Source: Eledone cirrhosa (lineage: Eukaryota). Taken from it: a stretch of DNA of 64,000 bases. The notes below the pieces were generated by a model. The model had not been told where the DNA came from. It saw only the letters and a list, made by a program, of their open reading frames with translations, and ran no database searches. Position numbers and translations under genes: made by a program. The stretch is from positions 36,146,001-36,210,000 of the forward strand of contig OZ024742.1 in the NCBI GenBank assembly GCA_964016885.1, written 5' to 3'. Below are positions 345 to 59,134 of the stretch, piece by piece. The first letter of the stretch is position 1; each line of letters begins with the position of its first letter.

Positions 345-1195
<851 letters not shown>

Positions 1196-2602: not shown

Positions 2603-2682
<80 letters not shown>

Positions 2683-2751
2683 GAAACGAAGCGGGCTGTG
2701 TGTTTACTGTAAACAATGTTTAAGATGGCAATATGGACGAAGCAAGAGAAG

Positions 2752-2828
2752 AACCCCTTCATCAGCTGTTAGCTGCAGATCACGGATGTTTCGGCGCTTA
2801 AAACAGGACATCGGAAGCGATCAGCAGC
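2752..2828 (-). ncRNA. Candidate non-circularly permuted hammerhead ribozyme (family P)
   Basis: Minus strand: gcugc-u-gauc gcuucc gaugU-C cuguu uuaagcgcc GAA-Acauc cgu gauc-u-gcagc u aacag CUGAUGA agggguu. Stem III gaugu/acauc, stem I cuguu/aacag. Confidence 0.6.
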
Positions 2829-3257
2829 GCGCCCAAGGCTTTTAATCGATCAAAAGGCCATGAGGGAAAGAAAAGAAAAAAATAGTGAGGAGAGAGGAAG
2901 AAGGAGGAAAAAACGAAGTAAACAAACCGAATGGAGGGGGGACACAGGACAATGGAATATGCAAGGGAGTAACTGAGGAAAAAATAGAATAAGTTACAAC
3001 GAACTGATTTGACATAAGTCTTGTGGTGCAATAACTAGGAGCGGTGTAGTTCCCTGCGATCTCAGCAGAGTGAGGGTAGAGAGAGAGAGAGAGAGAGAGA
3101 CGGAGCAACAGGAAGTGAGAGGGAGAAGGGAAAGGGAGATAATCCGAATTATATATATATATATATATGTATATAAGTTTATCCGGGTTCAATGGGGGGT
3201 AACCACAGTAAGTAAGGTACTCAATACAAAGCAGAGTATAAATGCTTAATATAGAAA

Positions 3258-3458: not shown

Positions 3459-3597
3459 ATATATACACAGAAATATACACGGTTAGTTGTGGGTCTAGTC
3501 AGCATGAAGAACTCAATGTAATCCATATGTTGAAAATGTTGTAGGTTAAAATAAATACCGGAAAACAATAAAACATCAAAAGGAAAACAGAGTCATG

Positions 3598-4011
3598 ATA
3601 TAAGTTAAAACAATGGAATAAAAATTCAAGTCATTAGAAATATACTTCAATGCTTTACGATCGTTTATATGTGATAATAATACATTGTACTCATATTTCG
3701 TTATCGATCTATGTAGGGTTAGTTACAAAATATCAAATAAGGAATATATTTACCTACATGTATATCATCAGCTGTTGTCAAAAGCAATGAAAATTTTATT
3801 TCATTCAATAATAAAATTTTCATTGCTTTTGACACGGCTGATGATATACATGTAGGTAAATATATTCTTTATTTGATATTTTGTAACTAACCCTACATAA
3901 ATCGATAACGAAATATGTGTACGATGTATTAATATCACCTAGAAACGATCGTAAAGCTGTGAAGTATATTTCTAATGACTTCAATTTTTATTTCATTGTT
4001 TTAACTTATAT
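3598..4011. repeat. Long inverted repeat (~200 bp arms) with a decayed hammerhead-like motif in each arm
   Basis: 3598-3800 is the reverse complement of 3810-4011; CTGATGA at 3838 and GAAA at 3910 with atgtagg/cctacat pairing between; stem I is poor. Confidence 0.75.
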
Positions 4012-4097
4012 TATATATATATATATATAAATCGCTCTACATGGCTGAATACAATAAATATAATCTGAGTTTTCACGAATGAAACAGTTCTAGAAGC

Positions 4098-7800: not shown

Positions 7801-7863
7801 TATTTTATTATATATATTTCAAGGGTACCAAGACACATTGGTTCGCTTTCCTCAGATAAAATA
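7801..7863 (-). ncRNA. Type I hammerhead ribozyme (H2)
   Basis: Mirror copy of 7991-8053 in the left arm. Confidence 0.75.
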
Positions 7864-7990
7864 CAAAGTTTGTTTTATAAATAGAGACATACCCATGAAA
7901 ATCATACCTTATCGTTTGGATATTCTCTGGATATCCATACGATAAGGTATGTTTTTCATGGGTATGTCTCTATTTATAAAACAAACTTTG

Positions 7991-8053
7991 TATTTTATCT
8001 GAGGAAAGCGAACCAATATATCTTGGTACCCTTGAAATATATATAATAAAATA
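7991..8053 (+). ncRNA. Type I hammerhead ribozyme (H2), palindromic short stem III
   Basis: uauuuuau CUGAGGA aag-cg-aaccaa..uuggua-c-ccuu GAA-AuauauaU-A auaaaaua; 8-bp stem I. Confidence 0.8.
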
Positions 8054-9539: not shown

Positions 9540-9772
9540 TTAGAAACACACAGATACATGCGGACACACACATATATACATGAATGCATCCGCACCCAAC
9601 TGTGAGTTAAGGGTGCCAACTTCACCGATGTTGCTCAATGAATGACTGGGACAGACCAATTCAGTTGAACTAGACTGAACCAGTATCAGAGTTAAAAATA
9701 CATTATGAAGAGAGAAGAAACATTTAGATATAATTAGTAATAAAATGTATCATACCTAAACTGCTCCTAAAT

Positions 9773-9862
9773 TCCTCGACTACGTAGTTTCGTGGCATAA
9801 ACAAAAACAATATATCATAAAGATATAGAGTCCTTGCGAGGTCTGCCGACTTATCAAGAGGA
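9773..9862 (-). ncRNA. Type I hammerhead, U3-A8 core variant
   Basis: Mirror of 10472-10561. Confidence 0.75.
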
Positions 9863-10471
9863 TACCTCATTTTACTAGTCTCAAGAACGCGTCTACACGA
9901 CGTGAGAAAGAATCCCAAAAGGCGGAGGGGGAGATAGTCACGCGATATAACGGTCGAGAAACAGAGCTAAGCCTCTTATAACCCTGAAGAAAATACCACG
10001 GAGGCGTTTTTCTAAATGTTTCTTCTCTCTTCATAATGTATTTTTAACTCTGATACTGGTTCAGTCTAGTTCAACTGAATTGGTCTGTCCCAGTCATTCA
10101 TTGAGCAACATCGGTGAAGTTGGCACCCTTAACTCACAGTTGGGTGCGGATGCATTCATGTATATATGTGTGTCCCCGCGTGTATCTGTGTGTTTCTAAA
10201 TATATTGTTAATAACTCCCTCTGGTCGAGCAATCTTTGAAGTGTGGGGACAGCCGGAAAGCTTCCATTACTCATACTTCTCGCCTTCTTCACCACCTCTT
10301 CTACGGCCTCGATATAAATACCCCCTCCGCCTCCGTGGTATTTTCTTCAGGGTTATAAGAGGCTTAGCTCTGTTTCTCGACCGTTATATCGCGTGACTAT
10401 CTCCCCCTCCGCCTTTTGGGATTCTTTCTCACGTCGTGTAGACGCGTTCTTGAGACTAGTAAAATGAGGTA

Positions 10472-10561
10472 TCCTCTTGATAAGTCGGCAGACCTCGCAA
10501 GGACTCTATATCTTTATGATATATTGTTTTTGTTTATGCCACGAAACTACGTAGTCGAGGA
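10472..10561 (+). ncRNA. Type I hammerhead, U3-A8 core variant, extended stem II
   Basis: uccuc UUGAUAA gu-c-ggca...ugcc-ac GAA-AcuacguagU-C gagga; palindromic stem III, GUC site. Confidence 0.75.
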
Positions 10562-10630
10562 ATTTAGGAGCAGTTTAGGTATGATACATTTTATTACTAA
10601 TTATATCTAAATGTTTCTTCTCTCTTCATA

Positions 10631-10687
<57 letters not shown>

Positions 10688-14645: not shown

Positions 14646-16390
14646 CATGGTGGCTGCCAACTCGTTTTCGAGTACGGCCACTACTTTATATCCATGTAGG
14701 AGAACCCCTACCGATGCGCTGAACGAATGTGACTTTTTAGTCCAGCCAGCGACTTGAAAACTCTGGCACAAAGACTACACTTGTGACCATTATTGACACA
14801 TAGTGCAGGGCCCATGGTACCATGTGATGACAAGTGCAGAGAGATCTCCAGATATAAAGCAATGCCTGTGCTGTGAAGCTTTTATAGTGAGCAAAGGCAC
14901 TGCACAAAGCCAGTCCCACTCTCTTAACTAAGATGATATTTACCAAAAAGAAGAACAAGTCAACATCATTGGATACCATCAGGGTTGCAGGTGTTATATC
15001 AGAGTTTTCCTTCTCCTAGAATTCTGCCTTGACAAAGGCTAAGGGGTCATCTCTCCCGGTGATTTTGGATGGCCATTGAGTCTTAAGAGCTCCTTTGCCC
15101 TTTGACAGGTTTTGTTTTTAGTCCTGCAGGATATCCAAAGTCACCCTCCTCACTAAGAAACCTTGGTGGGGTTGCCAGTTTAGTCGCCAACGACCCGACC
15201 ATGAGTCAGGTTGTACTGGGATACATGTTACCAGTAGCACGAACTGGTGACCTGACAAAAAGAAGAACAAGTCAACATCATTGGATACCATCAGAGTTGC
15301 AGGTGTTATATCAGAGTTTTCCTTCTCCTAGAATTCTGCCTTGACAAAGGCTAAGGGGTCATCTCTCCCGGTGATTTTGGATGGCCATTGACGCTAAAGA
15401 GCTCCCCTGCCCCTTGACAGGTACATATATACACACACATATATACATACATACATACATACATACATATCTATACATGGTGGCTGCCAACTCGTTTTCA
15501 AGTACGGCCACTACTTTATATCCATGTAGGAGAAGTCCTACCGATGCGCTGACGAGTGTGACTTTTTAGTCCAGCCAGCGACTTGAAAACTCTGGTACAA
15601 ACACTACACTTGTGACAAATATTGACACATAGTGCTGGGCCCATGATACCATGTGATGACAAGTGCCGAGAGATCTCCAGATATAAAAAAATGCCTGTGC
15701 TGTGAAGCTTTTATAGTGAGCAAAGGCACCGCACAAAGCCAGTCCCACTCTCTTAACCAAGATGATATTTACCAAAAAGAAGAACATGTCAACATCATTG
15801 GATACTATCAGAGTTGCAGGTGTTATATCAGAGTTTTCCTTCTCCTAGAATTCTGCCTTGACAAAGGCTAAGGGGTCATCTCTCCCGGTGATTTTGGATG
15901 GCCATTGACTCTTAAGAGCTCCTTTGCCCTTTGACAGGTTTTGTTTTTAGTCCTGCAGGATGTCCAAAGTCACCCTCCTCACCAAGAAACCTTGGTGGGG
16001 TTGCCAGTTTAGTCGCCAACGACCCGACCATGAGACAGGTTGTACTGGAATACATGTTACCAGTAGCACCAACTGGTGACCTGACATACATATATATATA
16101 CATACATACATACATATACACACATACATACATATATATATACATACACATATATATACATACATATATATATACATACATATATATACACACATACATA
16201 CATATATACATACATACATATATATATAGATACATATATATATACATACATATACACATACATACATACATATATATACATATATATATATATATACATA
16301 CATACATACACATACATATACATACATACACATATACATACATATATATATACATACATACATACATACATACATACATACATACATACA

Positions 16391-16424
<34 letters not shown>

Positions 16425-17438
16425 CATACATACACATATATATACATATATACATATACATACATACATACATACATACACATATATACATACACATACA
16501 TACACATATATATATATACATACATATATATACACACACATACATATATATATATACATACATACATACATATACATACATACACACATATACATACATA
16601 TACACATATATATATAGATATATACATATATACATATACATACATACACATATATATAGATATATATATACACACATATACATACATACACACATATATA
16701 TATACATACATACATACATATATATACATACATACATACACACATATACATACATACATACATACATATACATACACACATATATACATACATATACATA
16801 CATATATATACACACATATATATATATACATGGTGGCTGCCAACTCGTTTTCGAGTACGGCCACTACTTTATATCCATGTAGGAGAACCCTTACCGATGC
16901 GCTGAACGTGTGTGACTTTTTAGTCCAGCCAGCGACTTGAAAACTCTGGTACAAACACTACACCTGTGACAATTATTGACACATAGTGCTGGGCCCATGG
17001 TACCATGTGAGGACAAGTGCAGAGAGATCTCCAGATACAAAGCAATGCCTGTGCCGTGAAGCTTTTATAGTGAGCAAAGGCACTGCACAAAGCCAGTCCC
17101 ACTCTCTTAACCAAGATGATATTTACCAAAAAGAAGAACAAGTCAACATCATTGGATACCATCAGGGTTGCAGGTGTTATATCAGAGTTTTCCTTCTCCT
17201 AGAATTCTGCCTTGACAAAGGCTAAAGGGTCATCTCTCCCGGTGATTTTGGATGGCCATTGACTTTTAAGAGCTCCTTTGCCCTTTGACAGGTTTTGTTT
17301 TTAGTCCTGCAGGATGTCCAAAGTCACCCTCCTCACCAAGAAACCTTAGTGGGGTTGCCAGTTTAGTCGCCAACGACCCGACCATGAGACAGGTTGTACT
17401 GGGATACATGTTACCAGTAGCACCAACTGGTGACCTGA
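14646..17438 (-). mobile_element. Cluster of three ~610 bp RTE-derived non-autonomous elements (family A): 14646-15257, 15476-16086, 16829-17438, plus partial 15258-15422
   Basis: Highly similar copies, same orientation, separated by (CATA)n-like tails; 3' part encodes a relic of the RTE zinc finger. Confidence 0.85.
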
Positions 17439-25799: not shown

Positions 25800-26665
25800 C
25801 ATGGTGGCTGCCAACTCGTTATCGAGTACGGCCACTACTTTATATCCATGTAGGAGAACGCCTACCGATGCGCTGACGAGTGTGACTTTTTAGTCCAGCC
25901 AGCGACTTGAAAACTCTGGTACAAACACTACACTTGTGATAATTATTGACACATAGTGCTGGGCCCATGGTACCATGTGACGACAAGTGCAGAGAGATCT
26001 CCAGATATAAAGCAATGCCTGTGCCGTGAAGCTTTTATAGTGAGCAAAGGCACTGCACAAAGCCAGTCCCACTCTCTTAACCAAGATGATATTTACCAAA
26101 AAGAAGAACAAGTCAACATCATTGGATACCATCAGGGTTGCAGGTGTTATATCAGAGTTTTCCTTCGCCTAGAATTCTGCCTTGACAAAGGCTAAGGGGT
26201 CATCTCTCCCGGTGATTTTGGATGGCCATTGATTCTTAAGAGCTCCTTTGCCCTTTGACAGGTTTTGTTTTTAATCCTGCAGGATGTCCAAAATCACCCT
26301 CCTCACCAAGAAACCTTGGTGGGGTTGCCAGTTTAGTCGCCAACGACCCGACCATGGGACAGGTTGTACTGAAATACATGTTACCAGTAGCACCAAGTGG
26401 TGACCTGACATAGTTTTCCTTCTCCTAGAATTCTGCCTTGACAAAGGCTAAGGGGTCATCTCTCCCGGTGATTTTGGATGGCCATTGACTCTTAAGAGCT
26501 CCTTTGCCCCTTGACAGGTTTTGTTTTTAGTCCTGCAGGATATCCAAAGTCACCTTCTCACCAAGAAACCTTGGTGGGGTTGCCAGCTTAGTCGCCAACA
26601 ACCCGACCACAGGACAGGTTGTACTGGAATACATGTTACCAGTAGCACCAAGTGGTGACCTGACA
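25800..26665 (-). mobile_element. RTE-derived family A element (25800-26410) plus duplicated 5' part (26412-26665)
   Basis: Same sequence as the 14.6-17.4 kb copies. Confidence 0.85.
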
Positions 26666-32091: not shown

Positions 32092-32140
<49 letters not shown>

Positions 32141-32459
32141 TTTCTTTCGCACTCTTGGTCAGGCTGGTTCGCTTTTTTCTCTCTCTCGTCTACGATTTCA
32201 CAGAACTTATGTTCACCGAATTCACAGACTAGATTCCTCCCGTTAGACCTGTACGGAATTCCTTCCTTGCTCACATTCCAACCAGGTTTGATGGTCTTTA
32301 TTCTCTCTCGTTCACGATTTCACCGAACTTATATTCATGGAAATTTGGGACTTGACTCGTTCTTCCTCACTTTTCGTTGCTTCACCATCTTTGTTTGTTT
32401 ACACTCTCGTGTCCCCTTTATTTACGTGTCCCAACGACTTTTTTTAACCGTTGCTCGCA

Positions 32460-32530
32460 CCAACCGGAGGTATATGATCTTTAAAGCGATGAAATACCAA
32501 TGATGGTTGGAAGATCACTGATGAAGGACT
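32460..32530 (+). ncRNA. Candidate non-circularly permuted hammerhead (family Q)
   Basis: ccaacc gga gguaU-A ugaucuu uaaagcgau GAA-Auacc aaugau gguugg aagauca CUGAUGA aggacu. Confidence 0.6.
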
Positions 32531-33098
32531 AACTTTATTCATATGTAACCCATTAGTAACCACGCAGCACGTTTATTCTCATATTTACACATATATTTTT
32601 CCCCGCTGTGACCCGTCTATCTCGTTCTTACTGCTCCTTCTTTCTCTGTATCTTCACCCTCTCTAACAGTCACACTCTCTCTCTGTTAGCCTCTTCCTCA
32701 TCCTTCACTCACTCACTCTCTGTTACTACCTCTCCTCCTTCTCCTTCTTCCCGTTTGACCTGTGCGTAATTCTTTTCTTTCGCACTCTTGGTCAGGCTGG
32801 TTCACTTTTTTTCTCTCTCGTCTACGATTTCACAGAACTTATGTTCACCGAATTCACAGACTAGATTCCTTCTTCCTCCCGTTAGACCTGTACGGAATTC
32901 CTTCCTTGCTCACATTCCAACCAGGTTTGATGGTCTTTATTCTCTCTCGTTCACGATTTCACCGAACTTATATTCATGGAAATTTGGGACTTGACTCGTT
33001 CTTCCTCACTTTTCGTTGATTCACCATTTTTGTTTGTTTACACTCTCGTGTCCCCTTTATTTACGTGTCCCAACGACTTTTTTTAGCCGTTGCTCGCA

Positions 33099-33169
33099 CC
33101 AACCGGAGGTATATGGTCTTTAAAGCGATGAAATACCAATGATGGTTGGAAGATCACTGATGAAGGACT
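33099..33169 (+). ncRNA. Candidate permuted hammerhead (family Q), second tandem copy
   Basis: As 32460-32530; stem I strand uggucuu keeps pairing through G-U. Confidence 0.6.
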
Positions 33170-33287
33170 AACTTTATTCATATGTAACCCATTAGCAACC
33201 ACGCACCACGTTTATTCTCATATTTACATATATTTTTTTCCCCGCTGTGACCCACCTATTTCGTTCTTACTGCTTCCTCTTTCTCTG

Positions 33288-33380
<93 letters not shown>

Positions 33381-39500: not shown

Positions 39501-39879
39501 AGAATGAAACAGTTCTAGTCCTATAAATTTTGTTGTATACACTCTACTAATGTATTGAGTACCTTACTTACTGTGGTTTCCCCCGATTAAACCCGGGACT
39601 CACACATACATATATATATATACGATATTAACAAATGGAAACTATATTTATAAAACCATATTTATTTTATTATACATATTACAAGGACACCACGTTAAGT
39701 TATGGTGTGCTTTCATCAGACAAACTACAATATAAATCAGTTTTATAAATAAATATTGACATACCCTTAAAAAATGCAACCATTAGTGTTGGAAGCTCCC
39801 GGATAGTGGAGCTCCCAACAGTAATGGTTGCATTTTTTAAGGGTATGTCAATATTTATTTATAAAACTGATCTATATTG

Positions 39880-39944
39880 TATGTTGTCTGATGAAAGCAC
39901 ACCATAACTTCACGTGGTGTCCTTGAAATATGTATAATAAAATA
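39880..39944 (+). ncRNA. Type I hammerhead (H2) in the right arm of palindrome 39625-39985
   Basis: uauguugu CUGAUGA aag-c-acaccau..guggugu-c-cuu GAA-AuauguaU-A auaaaaua; left-arm copy 39663-39724 has GAAA mutated. Confidence 0.75.
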
Positions 39945-43529: not shown

Positions 43530-43599
43530 GAATGGATCAGCAGTACCGTCGGTAGTGGTCGAAACTGTGTACATCCATTTCGACGGCTGAAGACAGCAG
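43530..43599 (+). ncRNA. Candidate non-circularly permuted hammerhead (family R)
   Basis: gaauggau ca gcagU-A ccgucg guagugguc GAA-Acugu guac auccauuu cgacgg CUGAAGA cagcag. Confidence 0.6.
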
Positions 43600-44525
43600 A
43601 TATTTTGAACCTGTTGCCAATTGTACAATATTATCTGTGATGCACACAGCTCTATTCATATATCAAGGCGACAATTCTCCCTTCTTATCACGTGACACTA
43701 TTGTCTTGTTTTTTCGTCTCTGTGTTTTTTTTTCGTGAGTGTATTTTTATTGGCAATTATGAGCCTCCCAAAATATGAGAAAATTTGTTTCAATACACGA
43801 TTTTACATTAAGTATCTTGCAAAGCAAATACAAAAACAATATGTCTTAGAGAACCAGTCCTTTAAGTGTCATTATTTCATTAGATAAATGAATAAATGAA
43901 AAAAGAAATAAATTAAATAAATGAATAAATAAATAAATATCAATAAATTTCATGTCTTCTTGACTGGTGGAATTTAAAGTGCATTTTAAATAACTTTATT
44001 TTTAAATTTTCGTTTACTCATAAAAAAAAAATTCAAAATATCAAAAATGTTCAGTGTCTTCTATATTTTTTTTATGAGTTGTTTAGATTTAGTTACTGTT
44101 ATTTGTACCTATTCATCTTCTTTTTTTTGTTGGAAGAGGGGGGGAGTAAAATAAAGAGTGTTTTATGTAAGGTCAGGTTTAATACGATGTTGATTCATGG
44201 AATATATTTGATGAATGGAGAATAAGGTTGTTTATTAAAGCTAAAGTTTCACAAATGTTTGGGGGCTTGTAAGATTGCGATGGAGAAGAAATTGAGGGCT
44301 TTATATTTATATTTTTATTTTCACCTTATTTGATTATTTACTTTTTTCTGTTTGTTTGTCGTTGTTGCTATTATTATTTTGTTTTTGTTGTGTTTTTGTT
44401 TTTTTGGTGTTTTTTTTTTGTTTTTTGGGGGGAGGGGTGAATTTATTAATACTGTTAGTGTAGAATATTTGTTCTGTGATGTGACACTCGTGTCAAGTGG
44501 TGCTACTGACAGATGTGTATATATG

Positions 44526-45561: not shown

Positions 45562-45612
45562 AGATTCTACAGGACTAGAACTGTTTCATTCTTTAGAAAT
45601 CATCAGGAATCT
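45562..45612 (-). ncRNA. Type I hammerhead (H1)
   Basis: agauuc CUGAUGA u[uuc-uaaa-gaa]u GAA-Acag uucuaguc cugU-A gaaucu; stem I shows a compensatory change versus 3258-3308. Confidence 0.8.
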
Positions 45613-45999: not shown

Positions 46000-46038
46000 T
46001 GAACAAGTACTTTCATGCTTTCGCAATCTTCAGGTTCA
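46000..46038 (-). ncRNA. Minimal type I hammerhead in the Penelope 3' region
   Basis: ugaac CUGAAGA u[ugc-gaaa-gca]u GAA-AguacU-U guuca, sense to the PLE ORF. Confidence 0.85.
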
Positions 46039-47333
46039 CATTCTGTGGTGACAGTCAAGTTTGCAATTTTCAACTGTAATGAGATGGGTAAATTTTGTGC
46101 CTTATATACATTGAAAAGTGGCTACAGAATGCTAAATCTTGCAAACTGTATTTCGACCAATCGGTGTGTAGTTTCACTGGATTACTAAAGCTGATTGGTT
46201 TAGGCGTCACGGTTGGTTGAGCATGTCTAACGACTACTAATTGATCCTATCCAAAACATCAATTGTTTTGCTATTTTTAGAAATGATGAAAATAGCCTTT
46301 TCTAGTAATCATCACCATCAACATCACTTTTATTAATATTATTGTTGTTGTTGTTAGTGGTCGTAGTCATAGTCATAGTAGGATTAATAACCCATTATTA
46401 TTGTTCATTTAGCTTGGGTTGGAATTTATCAATAACATTTTTTTCTTTGATTTTTCTCTTGATTTCACTTGGGCTGTGTAATTGTAGAATGAAAATATTA
46501 TAAATATTATCTGACCACTTGTTGCTAGATGGATACTCAGGGGTATCTGACGGACATTTGGGTCTCTGATTTGCTGTCGGTGTACCCGTGCACGTTCCGA
46601 TAGTGCATTTCCAGTTTGACCGACATATAGTTCTTCACAATTCGGGCATTTAATGCAGTAAATTAGATTTCTGCTTTTGCAGTTCATATTTGCATTTGGG
46701 AATATTTTTCCAGTTTTTGTTTTCATATATTGACCGGCGTGTATGGATTGACATGTGCCACAGCGACTATCATTGCATTTAGATACAGTGAATGATTGGT
46801 CTTTGTTGTTAAGGTCTTTGCTTTTGTTAGTAATTGCTTCAAATATTTCGACTGTCTTTTACTAAGAGTCAAAGATCGATCTGTGATTAAGCCTTTTAAT
46901 TCATTACTTTGAGCAATGATCGGTAGGTTTGCTTTGGCAGTGTTGAAGATATTCTGGTGACATGGGTTGTGTGTCATTATAAATGGTATGACCAGTTCTT
47001 GGTTTCTTCTTGCTTGGGTTGTCCTTCCTTGGTTTCTTCTTCCTTGGGGTGTCCTTGGGTTGTATTTTTATAGCTCGCTGTATGCCATTTTCTATAAGTA
47101 GAGATGGGTATTTTTGTTTGAGCAAAAATTCTCTTAGTTCTGTTAGGCGTTTGTTCCTGGTATTTTTATCTTCTACAATGGTACAAATTCTTCTGACTAG
47201 GCAGTATGGGATGTTGTGATTTGTATGAGGTGGATGGCACGACTTAAAATTCAGATATTGATGGGTGCCTGTGTGTTTATAATATATATCCGTGGTAATG
47301 GTGCTGTCGTTTTTTATTATCATTATATCTAGG

Positions 47334-47513
47334 TGGATTGGCAGTATTGGTAGAGGGTCGGGCGCCATGCTTTCCAGCATAGTTACGTCCCTTTACGATC
47401 TGAGTTCAAATCCCGCCGAGGTTGACTTTGCCTTTCATCCTTACGGGGTCGATAAAATAAAGTACCAGTAATGCACTGGGATAATTGATGGCCTTGTGCC
47501 AAAAGTAGAAACA
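47334..47513 (+). mobile_element. tRNA-SINE inserted in the Penelope RT
   Basis: 12-bp TSD attatatctagg. Confidence 0.9.
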
Positions 47514-49011
47514 ATTATATCTAGGAATGGTAATTTGGTCCTACTCATCTCTTTTGTGAATTGGAGAGATGGGTGTAGGTTATTCAGGAGGATATTGAAC
47601 TCATCCAGAGTATCTAGAGATTCTGTCCAGATGATGAAACAGTCGTCAAGGTATCTCTTCCAAGATTTTTCAATGTACTTTCTAAAGTCAATACTATATT
47701 TTTCCTCTATTTCTTGGTAGAGTTGTTGTTCTAAGTATCCCATTACAGAGTTCGCGTAAACGGGAGCAAACTTCGTTCCCATCGCTGTGCCTCTAATTTG
47801 GATGTAATTCTTTCCATTGAAGAAGAAAGTGTTGTTTTCCAGAATAAATTTGACTGCGTGTAATATAAATGGCGCTGTGAATCTGATGGGAATCACTTCT
47901 CTATGTTTTTCCACCCAGTATTTAACCGCCTTTATTCCTAAATCATGTGTAATATTGGTGTAAAGGCTTACCACATCAAAACTACGTAGAAGTGAATTCG
48001 TTTCCGTGGTTTTGTGAAGATGGGACAAGAAGTCGATATCATCCCGGATGAAACTTCTATGAAACATAGTGGTTTCAAAATAATGTCAACAAAATTGCTT
48101 AGACGGTGGGTAGGGCATGTTGGACCAGCTATAATAGGTCTAAGTTTTAAGTTTTTTGGGTGTAGTAATTTAATGTACTCACAGTTTTGTTCTTTTACTG
48201 TCAGTTGTATTTCTTTTGACTTATGAACTTTCGGTAGGCCATACAGGTTGCTGGGTTTTGGCTCAAAATTGGTGATGTAGTCTCTTTCCTTATCAGTGAG
48301 TTGTGGTATTTTGAAGCCAGGTTGTTGATCTTCTTCATGATGTTGTGGTCTATATTTGACGGTATTTCATGATAGAATGTTGTGTCTTTCAGTTGTTCCT
48401 CAACCAAATCGTTGTAGTATTCAGCATCTATTATAACAACTGCACCCCCTTTATCTGCTTGTTTAATTATTATTGTTTTATCATTTTTTGTTTTCTTTTT
48501 AATATGATTGAAGCCGATGTTTATATTTGCTACGCAGATGCAATACATCTGGAACTCGTTTGTGCATAGTCGAGTCATCATGCTGGTTTATTAAAAAAAA
48601 AGTTGCTGGTTTATTAAAAAAAAAAAAAAAAAAAAAAAAGGACGCTGTCCATTCAATTTTCAAACATCAGATGACTGACGATTTAAAAAAGGTGCAATTC
48701 AAATGCGTAGGACTGATGGATGAGAAATGATCTAAATATGGCGCATACAGGTGGTTGAAGGGTAGATTTGTAAAGAAACTCCTCGTTGTGGACACCTGAG
48801 CTAAGAGAATTGGTAAATTAAATTACTGATAATAGTATCAAATTTAGATTTAATATTACAGCTTATAACACGTGATGGAGACGTAGGGACACCGTCACTA
48901 CATAAGGCCTGTCCCTTATTTACATATGTATTATATAATAGAATGACATCAATGCAAAACACTTTATCTTCAAGAAAATGTGTGTTCGCACTAGTGTATA
49001 TATATCGGGCA

Positions 49012-51932: not shown

Positions 51933-52854
51933 TAAATTTCTTTAAGTCGTTTGGATGCCTCGACAATGCAGATGGGTAAATCTCCGGGTAACAAGATCCG
52001 GTGGTGGAGAGAGAGATGTAAGTGGGTGTACGTTGAGATGCGTGGCGTAAAGAAGACTGTAGCGTGTAGAAGAATGTAGGAAAGAGCGTAATGGATAAAA
52101 ATAAAAATAATAACACGAGATAGAGTTACCTTGGGAGAGATTTAATTGTCCCTATATATTTCGGATTCACATCCATCAACTGGAGTTTTTTTCCGGGAGG
52201 AGGGGGGGGGGGAGGTTGTCTGTCGGAAAGGTGCGAAACGTGTCCTCCGCTGTTCGTTGTTTTGAATATCTGACGTATTCAGCAGAGCGCGCGTGCGCGT
52301 GAAATGGGGTCGGTCAAGCAGAGGTCGGCGGCCGAAATAGTTCTTTCAATTGTGGGAGTGGGGTGGCTCTAGCTGTCATCCATAGTATTCTCTGCCTGTT
52401 TGGTGAATGTTACTGTGTGTGTGTGTGCGTGTGTTGTTGTCTCGCTTGAGTGTGTGTGTGCGTGTGTTGCTGCATCGTTTTCTTACTTAAACCAACCACC
52501 TCATTTCGCTTCTCTCGGATCGGCTGTTTAATTGTGGCCCTAGGCGTTTGATCCAAAGTGCTTCCTTGATAGGTAATGTGCCGACGTTTCTTTCTGTCGC
52601 TAGAATTGTGACAATGGCCCTTCCGTCTTTGTTTCCGCATTTGGCTATGTGTTTCCGGAAAGACGAGGCCCTGGTGTTAGTGTGCTGCTTGATCCGGATG
52701 TGCAGCGGCCGGATTGTGCTACCTATATAGTATTGGTTGCACTTGTTACATTCTATCTTATACACGACGTATGTGCGTAGGCAACAGTTCGCATGGCGTA
52801 TCGGGAAGTCTCTGAGGGAGCACGCGTCAGTTGATTTCCCGGGTTTCCTGGAGA

Positions 52855-52858
<4 letters not shown>
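51930..52858 (-). mobile_element. Penelope-like 3' fragment (GIY-YIG endonuclease and 3' UTR), second family
   Basis: VVYKIECNKCNQYYIGST..RIKQH..KEALWIK..PQLN (52487-52765); decayed hammerhead ggau-guga-aucc-GAAA-uaua-ua near 52148-52186. Confidence 0.85.
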
Positions 52859-52929
<71 letters not shown>

Positions 52930-52932
<3 letters not shown>

Positions 52933-53870
52933 AAAAATGGAGTGCTGCGTGGTTTCACATGGGTTACATATGAATAAAATTAGTCCTTCATCAGTGATCT
53001 TACAACCGTCATTGGTATTTCATCGCTTTAAAAATCATATACCTCTGGTTGGTGCGAGCAATAACTAAATAAAGTTATTAGAACAAGTAAAATAGGGTGA
53101 AGCGAGCGAGACATGTAAACAAACAAAGATGGTATTGCAACGGAACGATAGGAAGAGACAAGTACATGATATCTTTAAGCTTAAGCTTGGTGAAATCATG
53201 GACGAGAGATACAGACTATCCGACCTGGGTGAGATGTGAGCGAGAAAAGGATTTCATACAGGTCAAACGGGAGGAAGTGAGAGAGGGGGAGAAGCAGAGA
53301 GTGAGTGAGTGGAAGTGTGAGGACGAGGCCAGCTGAGAGAGACTGTGACTGGCAGAGGGGGTAAAAAGAAGGTGAGAGATACAGAGAGAGTGGAAGCAGT
53401 AAGAAAGAAACAGACAATCGCAACTGAGGAAAAAATATAAATATAAGAAAAATGGAGTGCTGCGTGGTTGCACATGGGTTACATATGAATAAAATTAGTC
53501 CTTCATCAGTGATCTTCCAACCTTCACTTGGTATTTCATCGCTTTAAAAATCATATACCTCTGGTTGGTGCGAGCAATAAATAAATAAAGTTATTGGGTC
53601 AAGTAAAATAGGGTGAAGCGAGCGAGACATGTAAACAAACAAAGATGGTATTGCAACCGAAAGATAGGAAGAGACAAGTACATGATATCTATAAGCTTAA
53701 GGTTGGTGAAATCATGGACGAGAGATACAGACTATCCGACCTGAGTGAGATGTGAGCGAGAAAAGGATCTCACACAGGTCAAACGGGAGGAAGTGAGAAA
53801 GGGGGAGAAGCAGAGAGTGAGTGAGTGGAAGTGTGAGGAAGAGGCCAGCTGAGAGAGAGTGTGACTGTCA
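52930..53870 (-). mobile_element. Partial tandem (~515 bp period) of a family Q subfamily
   Basis: Reverse-complement similarity to 32.4-32.8 kb; permuted motifs at 52982-53052 and 53497-53568. Confidence 0.85.
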
Positions 53871-53911
53871 GTTTCGATTTCATCTATTTTCCTTATATAT
53901 ATATATATATA

Positions 53912-58390: not shown

Positions 58391-59134
58391 AAGGGGCCAT
58401 GTCCGGTTATACATTTCATTCATAAAATGTGTTTCTTAACCCAAATATTATTGTGTAGAACGTACTCCTTCTTATTTTCATTTCATTTTCTTCTGCCGTG
58501 TAGTTTCCTCATTGAAACAAGTGAACAGAGGGGGACAATAGACGACAGGCCAGATTAAAACAAACCGTCATAAAAGATTTGAAAGTGTGTAACCTCTAAA
58601 TATCATTCGATTGAGCTGTAATTTGGCACGTTTCTTTGTTTTATCAACTCAAACACGCGCGTAATCAACAGAAACTCTTTGGTACTATTTGTTCTGCATA
58701 GACACTATCAATCTAAGAGAGAGGAGGCTTTGAAGCTGATCATCAAAAAAACTTCCAAGATTAATGATGCAATATAAATGTCAAAGATCTATCAACTATA
58801 AAGATCTTTGAGTACAGGGAGGCTACGAAAAGTTTCAACAACAGAAACTTTTAACGGCTTTATAGCTGCCCTTGTTTACCATTTTTTATTTGTCTTCCTT
58901 TCTTCGCTTCTTCTACTTCCCACACACACATATATTTGGAAGATCACTGATGAAGGACCACTTTATTCATATGTAACCCATTTGCAACTCCGCAGCACGT
59001 TTATTCTCATATTTACACATATTTTTCCTCCCGCGGTGACCCGTCTATTTCTCTCTTACTGCTTCCTCTTTCTCTGTATCTTGTGTTGTTCAATTTCTAA
59101 CTAACTAAATAATATATATATATATATATATAAG

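Follow-up and report, generated by a model that had tools for sequence, protein, structure and literature searches.

The window analyzed here is a 64,000-nucleotide stretch of Eledone cirrhosa contig OZ024742.1 (positions 36,146,001 to 36,210,000, assembly GCA_964016885.1), and it consists of AT-rich animal DNA with many microsatellites and retroelement fragments and with a repeat content suggestive of octopus DNA. It holds four loci of a non-coding repeat, family Q, which were recovered by BLASTN of 32138-33290 against the window:

32138..33290, plus strand: family Q insertion of 1.8 units (639 + 514 bp) arranged head to tail, non-coding, with (TA)n tracts on both sides
826..1131, plus strand: single truncated copy in which the core GAAA has become GUAA, likely inactive
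52931..53871, minus strand: second subfamily, a partial tandem of period 516 with two intact motifs and predicted cuts after 53554 and 53038
58936..59082, plus strand: half copy, with block C and downstream sequence only

These loci carry the five near-complete copies of a hammerhead-like motif (at 1004, 32460, 33099, 52982, and 53497) and the half copy at about 58936 that a previous sequence-only reading of this DNA had listed, all of which the BLASTN search confirmed. Of the two tandem periods given in that reading, 639 bp stood, and 515 bp had to be revised, as the predicted cleavage sites of the minus-strand pair are 516 nt apart and the shorter figure came from a 1-nt insertion in one of its motifs. 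Similarly, the description of the copies as embedded in (TA)n is exact for 32138-33290 but not for the others: the 1004 copy is flanked by (CA)n and (TA)n, a 25-bp spacer precedes a short (TA)n on one side of the 53 kb pair, and the 3' end of the half copy is without (TA)n. The two units at 32138-33290 are 95.8% identical to each other, and identity to this insertion is 88-89% for 826-1131 and 74-78% for 52931-53871.

By locus, (TA)n lies at the 3' side in three of four cases, partial tandems occur in two of four, and the three loci concerned reach (TA)n where the unit is AT-rich, 107-177 nt past the cut site. The 5' ends are variable, no insertion ends at the AUA site, and the predicted cut site is spanned by all four complete copies. 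The unit is pyrimidine-rich on the motif strand and contains two short internal duplications; the longest ATG-started frame in the insertion has 70 codons, and a tRNA scan found none.

Four of the 14 sequencing runs listed (X1, X4, X7, and X9) gave a view of the family beyond the window. In run X1, 4673 contigs align to one family Q unit, with a summed contig depth of up to 929,000 over the motif (single contigs listed have depths of 8-33), which suggests very many copies, the summed depth itself being no copy number. This depth peaks over the motif, at 661k-929k in bins 32424-32533 compared with 36k-133k past 32556. Head-to-tail joints from 32770 to 32138 are present in four contigs of X1 and one of X4, loose ends running into (AT)n occur at 32544 in X4 and X9, and 941 of the 4673 X1 contigs are at least 99% identical to the 32138-33290 copy. 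Runs X7 and X9 yielded only 30 and 10 contigs, and small shares there were not counted as evidence. Among the 40 variant places listed (of 92), none is at a core base. The G32477 allele is common (81% of depth in X1), and 32466 G>T with 32504 T>A forms a possible compensatory pair, unphased, at 13% and 30% in X1 and at 42% and 54% in X4.

A permuted hammerhead motif in family Q

The two motif copies at 32138-33290 comprise the following parts, all on the plus strand:

32460..32466: 5' strand of an enclosing helix, P0, with its partner at 32504-32510 (-9.7 kcal/mol, empirical p 0.024)
32469..32481: block S, with one strand of stem III, the AUA triplet (cut predicted after A32474, by analogy with PMC10085705), and a stem I strand
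32482..32498: 9-nt linker or stem II strand, followed by block G (GAAA at 32491-32494, stem III strand at 32494-32498)
32504..32534: P0 3' strand, followed by block C, with a stem I strand at 32511-32517, CUGAUGA at 32518-32524, and the irregular side of stem II at 32525-32534
33099..33173: the other copy of the motif, at a distance of 639 nt, with its cut predicted after A33113

The hammerhead blocks are thus ordered cleavage site, GAAA, CUGAUGA, which is type SGC, one of three non-circular permutations of the hammerhead (Eckert 2023, PMC10085705). Stem I has 7 bp and stem III 5 bp, and blocks S and G lie inside P0, which abuts stem I. Across the five copies, stem I is paired in 35 of 35 cells and stem III in 25 of 25; GAAA and CUGAUGA are intact in four, as the earlier reading had it, the exception being the 1004 copy with GUAA, and all 13 core bases are intact in four of five copies and in both subfamilies. 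The empirical p for P0 across copies is 0.02, 0.02, 0.02, and 0.09. AUA is a natural hammerhead triplet, used by a viroid hammerhead (PMC1636495).

The main weakness of the motif, which the sequence-only reading did not mention, is stem II. It has one pair at the core (A-U, or G-U with an extra A), three mismatches, and then two pairs, with a maximum of 3/8 pairs in any register. With G32477, the stem I strand can pair alternatively with the bases after CUGAUGA (-6.2 vs -5.3 kcal/mol), and a HRIMA-like helix from the stem I side to the stem II side reaches -4.7 kcal/mol, compared with -9.7 kcal/mol for the same strand in P0. Predicted folds, from a program unable to form pseudoknots, contain P0 and most of stem III and lack stem I, with z from -1.6 to +0.4 (not significant). 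The claim that the unit has no canonical-order hammerhead holds, because the sole CUGAnGA on either strand is the motif's own and there is no Rfam match at gathering level; Rfam at this level gave no match in the whole window, and at E up to 5 over 32100-33320 it gave nine weak matches, with no ribozyme among them.

That stem I changes keep pairing, another point of the earlier reading, is true, but it is weak evidence since no two-sided change is present and column shuffles were not beaten. Paired cells make up 96.4% among the five copies, three pairs vary on one side only, two-sided covariation is absent from these five copies, and the structure scores no better than column shuffles (500/500). 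Between the subfamilies, the 64-nt motif is 62/64 and 61/64 identical (95-97%) and the remainder 276/360 and 218/288 (76-77%; Fisher p 4e-5 and 1.5e-4), and the best non-motif 64-nt windows have 54 and 53 identical positions. Conservation as high as that of the core extends to the unpaired linker bases and to 20 nt downstream, so this comparison shows function of the RNA region, not catalysis. In the 1004 copy, which belongs to the same subfamily as the reference, the motif (59/64) and its surroundings (218/247) have diverged alike (p 0.5), and this decay, together with the loss of GAAA, fits what is expected after insertion.

The window contains six SGC arrangements from three unrelated families, compared with none in 200 whole-window shuffles and a single match in 200 microsatellite-stripped shuffles, at thresholds fixed post hoc, once the matches were known; the chance expectation is below 0.005 per window. 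A word pattern shared by family Q and one of the other two families (the 2807 element described below) occurred at 51 viral and 70 metagenome loci, none of which has stems I and III, and those pattern matches are therefore attributed to chance. The family Q motif is real, well beyond chance, and its descent from an SGC hammerhead is in our view very likely.

Other ribozyme-like and Penelope-like elements in the window

The two further SGC families are each represented by one element:

2750..2828, minus strand: motif of an unrelated SGC element, in a unit at 2680-3160 between (TA)n tracts, with a GUC site at 2807, stem I of 5 bp, and stem III of 5 bp
43530..43600, plus strand: third unrelated SGC element, with a GUA site at 43545, stem I of 7 bp, and stem III of 5 bp

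In the 2807 element, P0 has 11 bp (-19.1 kcal/mol, a stability reached by 0 of 2000 random partners) and stem II forms 5/6 pairs after one extra A. Its unit (2680-3160, minus strand) is pyrimidine-rich and single-copy in the window, and carries what is predicted to be the best-formed SGC hammerhead of the window. P0 of the 43545 element has 7-8 bp (p 0.055). Pairing in its stem II requires a shift of two bases in register, an offset that matches several of the Naiad consensus motifs considered below. Stems I and III and P0 are kept in all three families with different letters, and there is no significant similarity at the motif.

Neighboring units with canonical type I hammerheads, which the sequence-only reading had noted, were seen in a descriptor scan at, e.g., 7999, 7855, 39888, 41535, and 45606. 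In the canonical-order hammerhead-like motifs at 45606 and 39497 (both minus strand) the first stem II position is a U-U mismatch, and irregular stem II openings are therefore common in this genome. Inverted-repeat structures at 7820-8034, 39719-39925, 3595-4014, and 9581-10636, two of them with a minimal type I hammerhead per arm, are typical of Penelope-like insertions. A separate 607-bp repeat family (14649-17437 and 25803-26665) consists of several 96%-identical copies between (ACAT)n-like tracts; some copies have CUGACGA, and the descriptor found no hammerhead in any block order among them.

Among the 21 window ORFs scanned, no Naiad coding sequence was recognised. Two GIY-YIG domains were found, both at the ends of reading frames, as in other Penelope-like clades; in a Naiad protein the GIY-YIG is N-terminal and the reverse transcriptase C-terminal. 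One is a fragment at 52487-52858 (minus strand, Pfam E 2e-6) that terminates at a stop codon and faces the 3' end of the second family Q subfamily tandem across a (TA)n tract, on the same strand; it is probably a separate truncated Penelope-like copy. The other closes a broken Penelope-like element at 46000-48587 (minus strand), with a reverse transcriptase and a terminal GIY-YIG after a CxxxxCxxC motif, which we take to be Neptune-like. This element is followed by a canonical-order hammerhead-like motif at 46033.

Probable permuted hammerheads in Naiad elements

Naiads are Penelope-like elements that show partial tandems and, often, a preference for (TA)n, and that have no canonical hammerheads (Craig 2021, PMC8557442). 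The same source describes eight Naiad families with a "half core," the other half of which lies 35-50 nt away on either side, and refers to cephalopod Naiads as long inactive. We searched the Naiad part of its consensus file (File S5) for the four CUGAnGA words and read the matches by eye. At least 60 places were seen (19 CTGATGA, 9 CTGAGGA, 16 CTGACGA, and 16 CTGAAGA), a count that omits the first six CTGAAGA places and words split by line ends. By eye, 10 of the 60 are SGC with stems I and III, one is a partial SGC, and six are fully paired in the order CSG; the remaining 43 are mostly coding or irresolvable.

The 10 SGC motifs, as read by eye, have a stem I of 4-6 bp and a stem III of 5-13 bp, and P0 (5-8 bp) is formed in seven of them, the Acropora ones having a 13-bp stem III instead. 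Three of the records stand ahead of the headers Naiad_Aacu, Naiad_Anas, and Naiad-1_Movir and are from Acropora by the order of File S1, one of them with a stem I mismatch; two stand ahead of Naiad_Ovul and Naiad_Omin and are from Octopus; the other five are in parts 9, 12, 12, 19, and 25 of the consensus file. The three Acropora motifs are nearly duplicates of one another, as are the two from Octopus, so the independent Naiad SGC cases number about seven. The partial SGC (part 8) has a P0 of 15 bp and a stem III of 7 bp, with a stem I of only 2 bp. At least three of the six CSG consensus sequences are from nematodes by the same visual reading; the paper defining CSG gives only two natural examples.

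In the Naiad SGC motifs, as read by eye, stem II is missing, irregular, or displaced by two bases, comparable to the irregular one of family Q, and in the two Octopus Naiads with the motif, SGC and P0 lie about 85 nt from the 3' end. Short blocks upstream of P0 and a 6-nt linker after stem III also look alike in family Q and the Octopus records, which is a by-eye impression only. The same SGC layout at Naiad 3' ends is likely to represent their missing ribozyme, judging from these consensus sequences. This Naiad connection is the most valuable and the most easily tested result of our analysis.

Set against known systems, family Q shares with type-SGC hammerheads (HRIMA-1 and variants, PMC10085705) the S-G-C order, an intact core, crossing helices formed by stems I and III, a short connection between stem I and the stem II strand, and a helix abutting the block C stem I strand. 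It differs in that the published SGC examples come from metatranscriptomes rather than an animal genome, have a regular stem II opened by G-C rather than one of 1 bp, and have an extra helix that connects stem I with stem II at their sides, whereas the stronger extra helix of family Q, P0, extends stem III. Family Q falls outside those authors' descriptor, which asks for a stem II that opens with G-C and has 3 bp or more, and their search patterns, which require CUGAUGAG or CUGAUGAUG with CGAAA, are matched by no family Q copy and by neither of the other two window elements. Naiads share with family Q partial tandems, 5' truncation, a (TA)n preference in many families, and the lack of a canonical hammerhead (PMC8557442), and SGC with P0 near the 3' end occurs, by eye, in cnidarian, arthropod-region, and cephalopod Naiad records; on the other hand, family Q is non-coding with a unit of 639 bp, and Naiads are 3.4-4.4 kb with coding sequence, and the accessible text of PMC8557442 does not report a permuted ribozyme. 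Non-LTR retrozymes (PMC7229834; Li et al. 2026, 10.64898/2026.07.22.740005) are, like family Q, non-coding tandem units with one hammerhead each that are viewed as non-autonomous derivatives of Penelope-like elements, but their hammerhead is type I, their units are mostly 150-450 bp, and their circles have been shown, whereas family Q has an SGC motif, units of 516-639 bp, and is known from DNA. Family Q is, on its sequence, an SGC-like motif in a retrozyme-like unit that departs from the SGC rule for stem II and from the type I rule for retrozymes, and thus a variant of both. Within the literature covered, which excluded subscription papers and bioRxiv supplements, we found no report of a non-circularly permuted hammerhead in an animal retroelement and no data on a stem II opened by A-U.

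Proposed propagation of family Q and its possible wider meaning

The sequence-only reading had interpreted family Q as a retrozyme-like or non-autonomous Penelope-type element processed by a permuted hammerhead, and the part of this that stands is that it is a non-coding Penelope-type unit whose only ribozyme-like motif is permuted; its placement is now closer, as SGC and most like Naiad. The proposal that tandem transcription could supply a partner strand was not borne out: some 60 nt in cis hold every block as well as stems I and III, and the stem II available from a neighboring copy is just as poor. As a whole, we are evenly divided over the reading that family Q is a non-coding, likely non-autonomous Naiad-type derivative of Penelope-like elements with a 60-70 nt SGC motif predicted to cut in cis after AUA. 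Its parts differ in strength: that it is a non-autonomous Penelope-like element is highly probable, that it belongs with the Naiad clade in particular is fairly probable, and the prediction that its motif still cleaves at AUA could equally well prove right or wrong.

Mechanistically, read-through transcripts of tandem copies would carry two motifs, each of which may fold in cis into a double-pseudoknot hammerhead and be cut after AUA; as stem II is poor, this cutting would probably be slow or protein-assisted. A Naiad reverse transcriptase/endonuclease would then open a nick in (TA)n and begin to copy the RNA immediately 3' of the motif. Its template would be either an uncut multimer or cut monomers joined into a circle, and the result would be partial tandems with ends away from the cut site. 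Four copies run across the cut site, so the template is taken to have been either uncut or circular, and the (TA)n 3' ends at three of four loci, the variable 5' ends, and the loose ends at 32544 are in line with copying from 3' of the motif. In the Poseidon element PAc, the hammerhead was cleaved only with the element's protein added, and uncleaved RNA was the main template in vitro (PMC11167929); as the family Q ends are not at AUA and uncut RNA could template PAc, neither the unit-length RNAs of the earlier reading nor circles are needed to explain the tandems. Several points count against parts of this scheme. The tested SGC-3 ribozyme required all four helices, stem II included (PMC10085705), so a stem II of 1 bp speaks against cleavage in family Q. 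With regard to a Naiad partner, cephalopod Naiads are described as long inactive (PMC8557442), yet about a fifth of the X1 contigs (941/4673) are nearly identical to the window copy; moreover, no Naiad ORF was recognised and the GIY-YIG domains are at frame ends. Family Q could be driven at present by another Penelope-like enzyme.

The strongest alternative, which we regard as possible and hold tentatively, is that the motif, although derived from an SGC hammerhead, has lost its cutting activity in family Q and is kept as a folded signal for binding by a partner reverse transcriptase or for the start of copying. Such a role would agree with the single pair of stem II, with linkers and downstream bases conserved like the core, with the fall in depth right after the motif and the loose (AT)n ends in X4 and X9, with the passage of all four complete copies across the predicted cut site, and with the insertion of a Poseidon element in vitro without cleavage (PMC11167929). 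It sits less well with 13 core bases that are intact in four of five copies and both subfamilies, and with the Naiad SGC motifs, most of which, by eye, have an irregular or off-register stem II yet retain a complete core in different phyla, pointing to a stem II that is different but functional.

A strict retrozyme cycle, in which monomers of 639 or 516 nt are ligated to circles or tandem motifs fold as a dimer, appears unlikely. One motif per tandem unit at spacings of 639 and 516 nt, insertions longer than a unit with ends away from the cut site, and the circles made by animal type I retrozymes, some of which need dimers (PMC7229834), are compatible with it; however, known dimeric hammerheads compensate for a short stem III (PMC4209133), and that of family Q has 5 bp, its weak helix being stem II, which a second copy does not improve, and Penelope-like elements normally show partial tandems without circles (PMC8557442, PMC11167929). 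It is very improbable that the motif is a box C/D kink-turn or snoRNA fragment that the repeat picked up, with GCGAUGA serving as box C and CUGA as box D: a weak Rfam snosnR66 match (25.1 bits vs a gathering threshold of 65, E 0.28) and a terminal helix possible with the G32477 allele point that way, but the match lacks 69 model positions, only 25 nt separate the boxes, there is no D' box, and the box C word is missing in the 2807 and 43545 elements, which retain stems I and III and P0. Finally, a chance arrangement of hammerhead words and stems spread by ordinary repeat copying is barely credible: it would accommodate the lack of covariation and the even decay of the 1004 copy, but a single copy would be expected to decay in this way once inserted, the presence of three unrelated families in one window is far above the chance expectation, and stems I and III accompanied none of the viral and metagenome word matches.

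Returning to the Naiad-type reading, its broader form is that permuted hammerheads, instead of being rare and confined to environmental RNAs, are the usual ribozyme of much of the Naiad clade, of type SGC in cnidarians, arthropods, and cephalopods and of type CSG in nematodes, and seeded high-copy non-autonomous families such as family Q, the animal SGC form having a remodeled, largely non-Watson-Crick stem II braced by an extra helix; we lean neither for nor against this proposal. The view of Naiads as a hammerhead-free Penelope-like clade had backed the argument that the ribozyme may be dispensable or parasitic. That argument would change, and current counts of animal ribozymes would be too low, if permuted hammerheads overlooked by standard descriptors are carried by many Naiads and by the non-coding elements that travel with them. 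Non-circular permutations would also move from a few hundred metatranscriptome sequences, plus two of type CSG, to abundant animal repeats. SGC and CSG are mutual circular permutations, which tandem repeats can interconvert, and these elements would then offer a natural series for studying the origin of hammerhead permutations.
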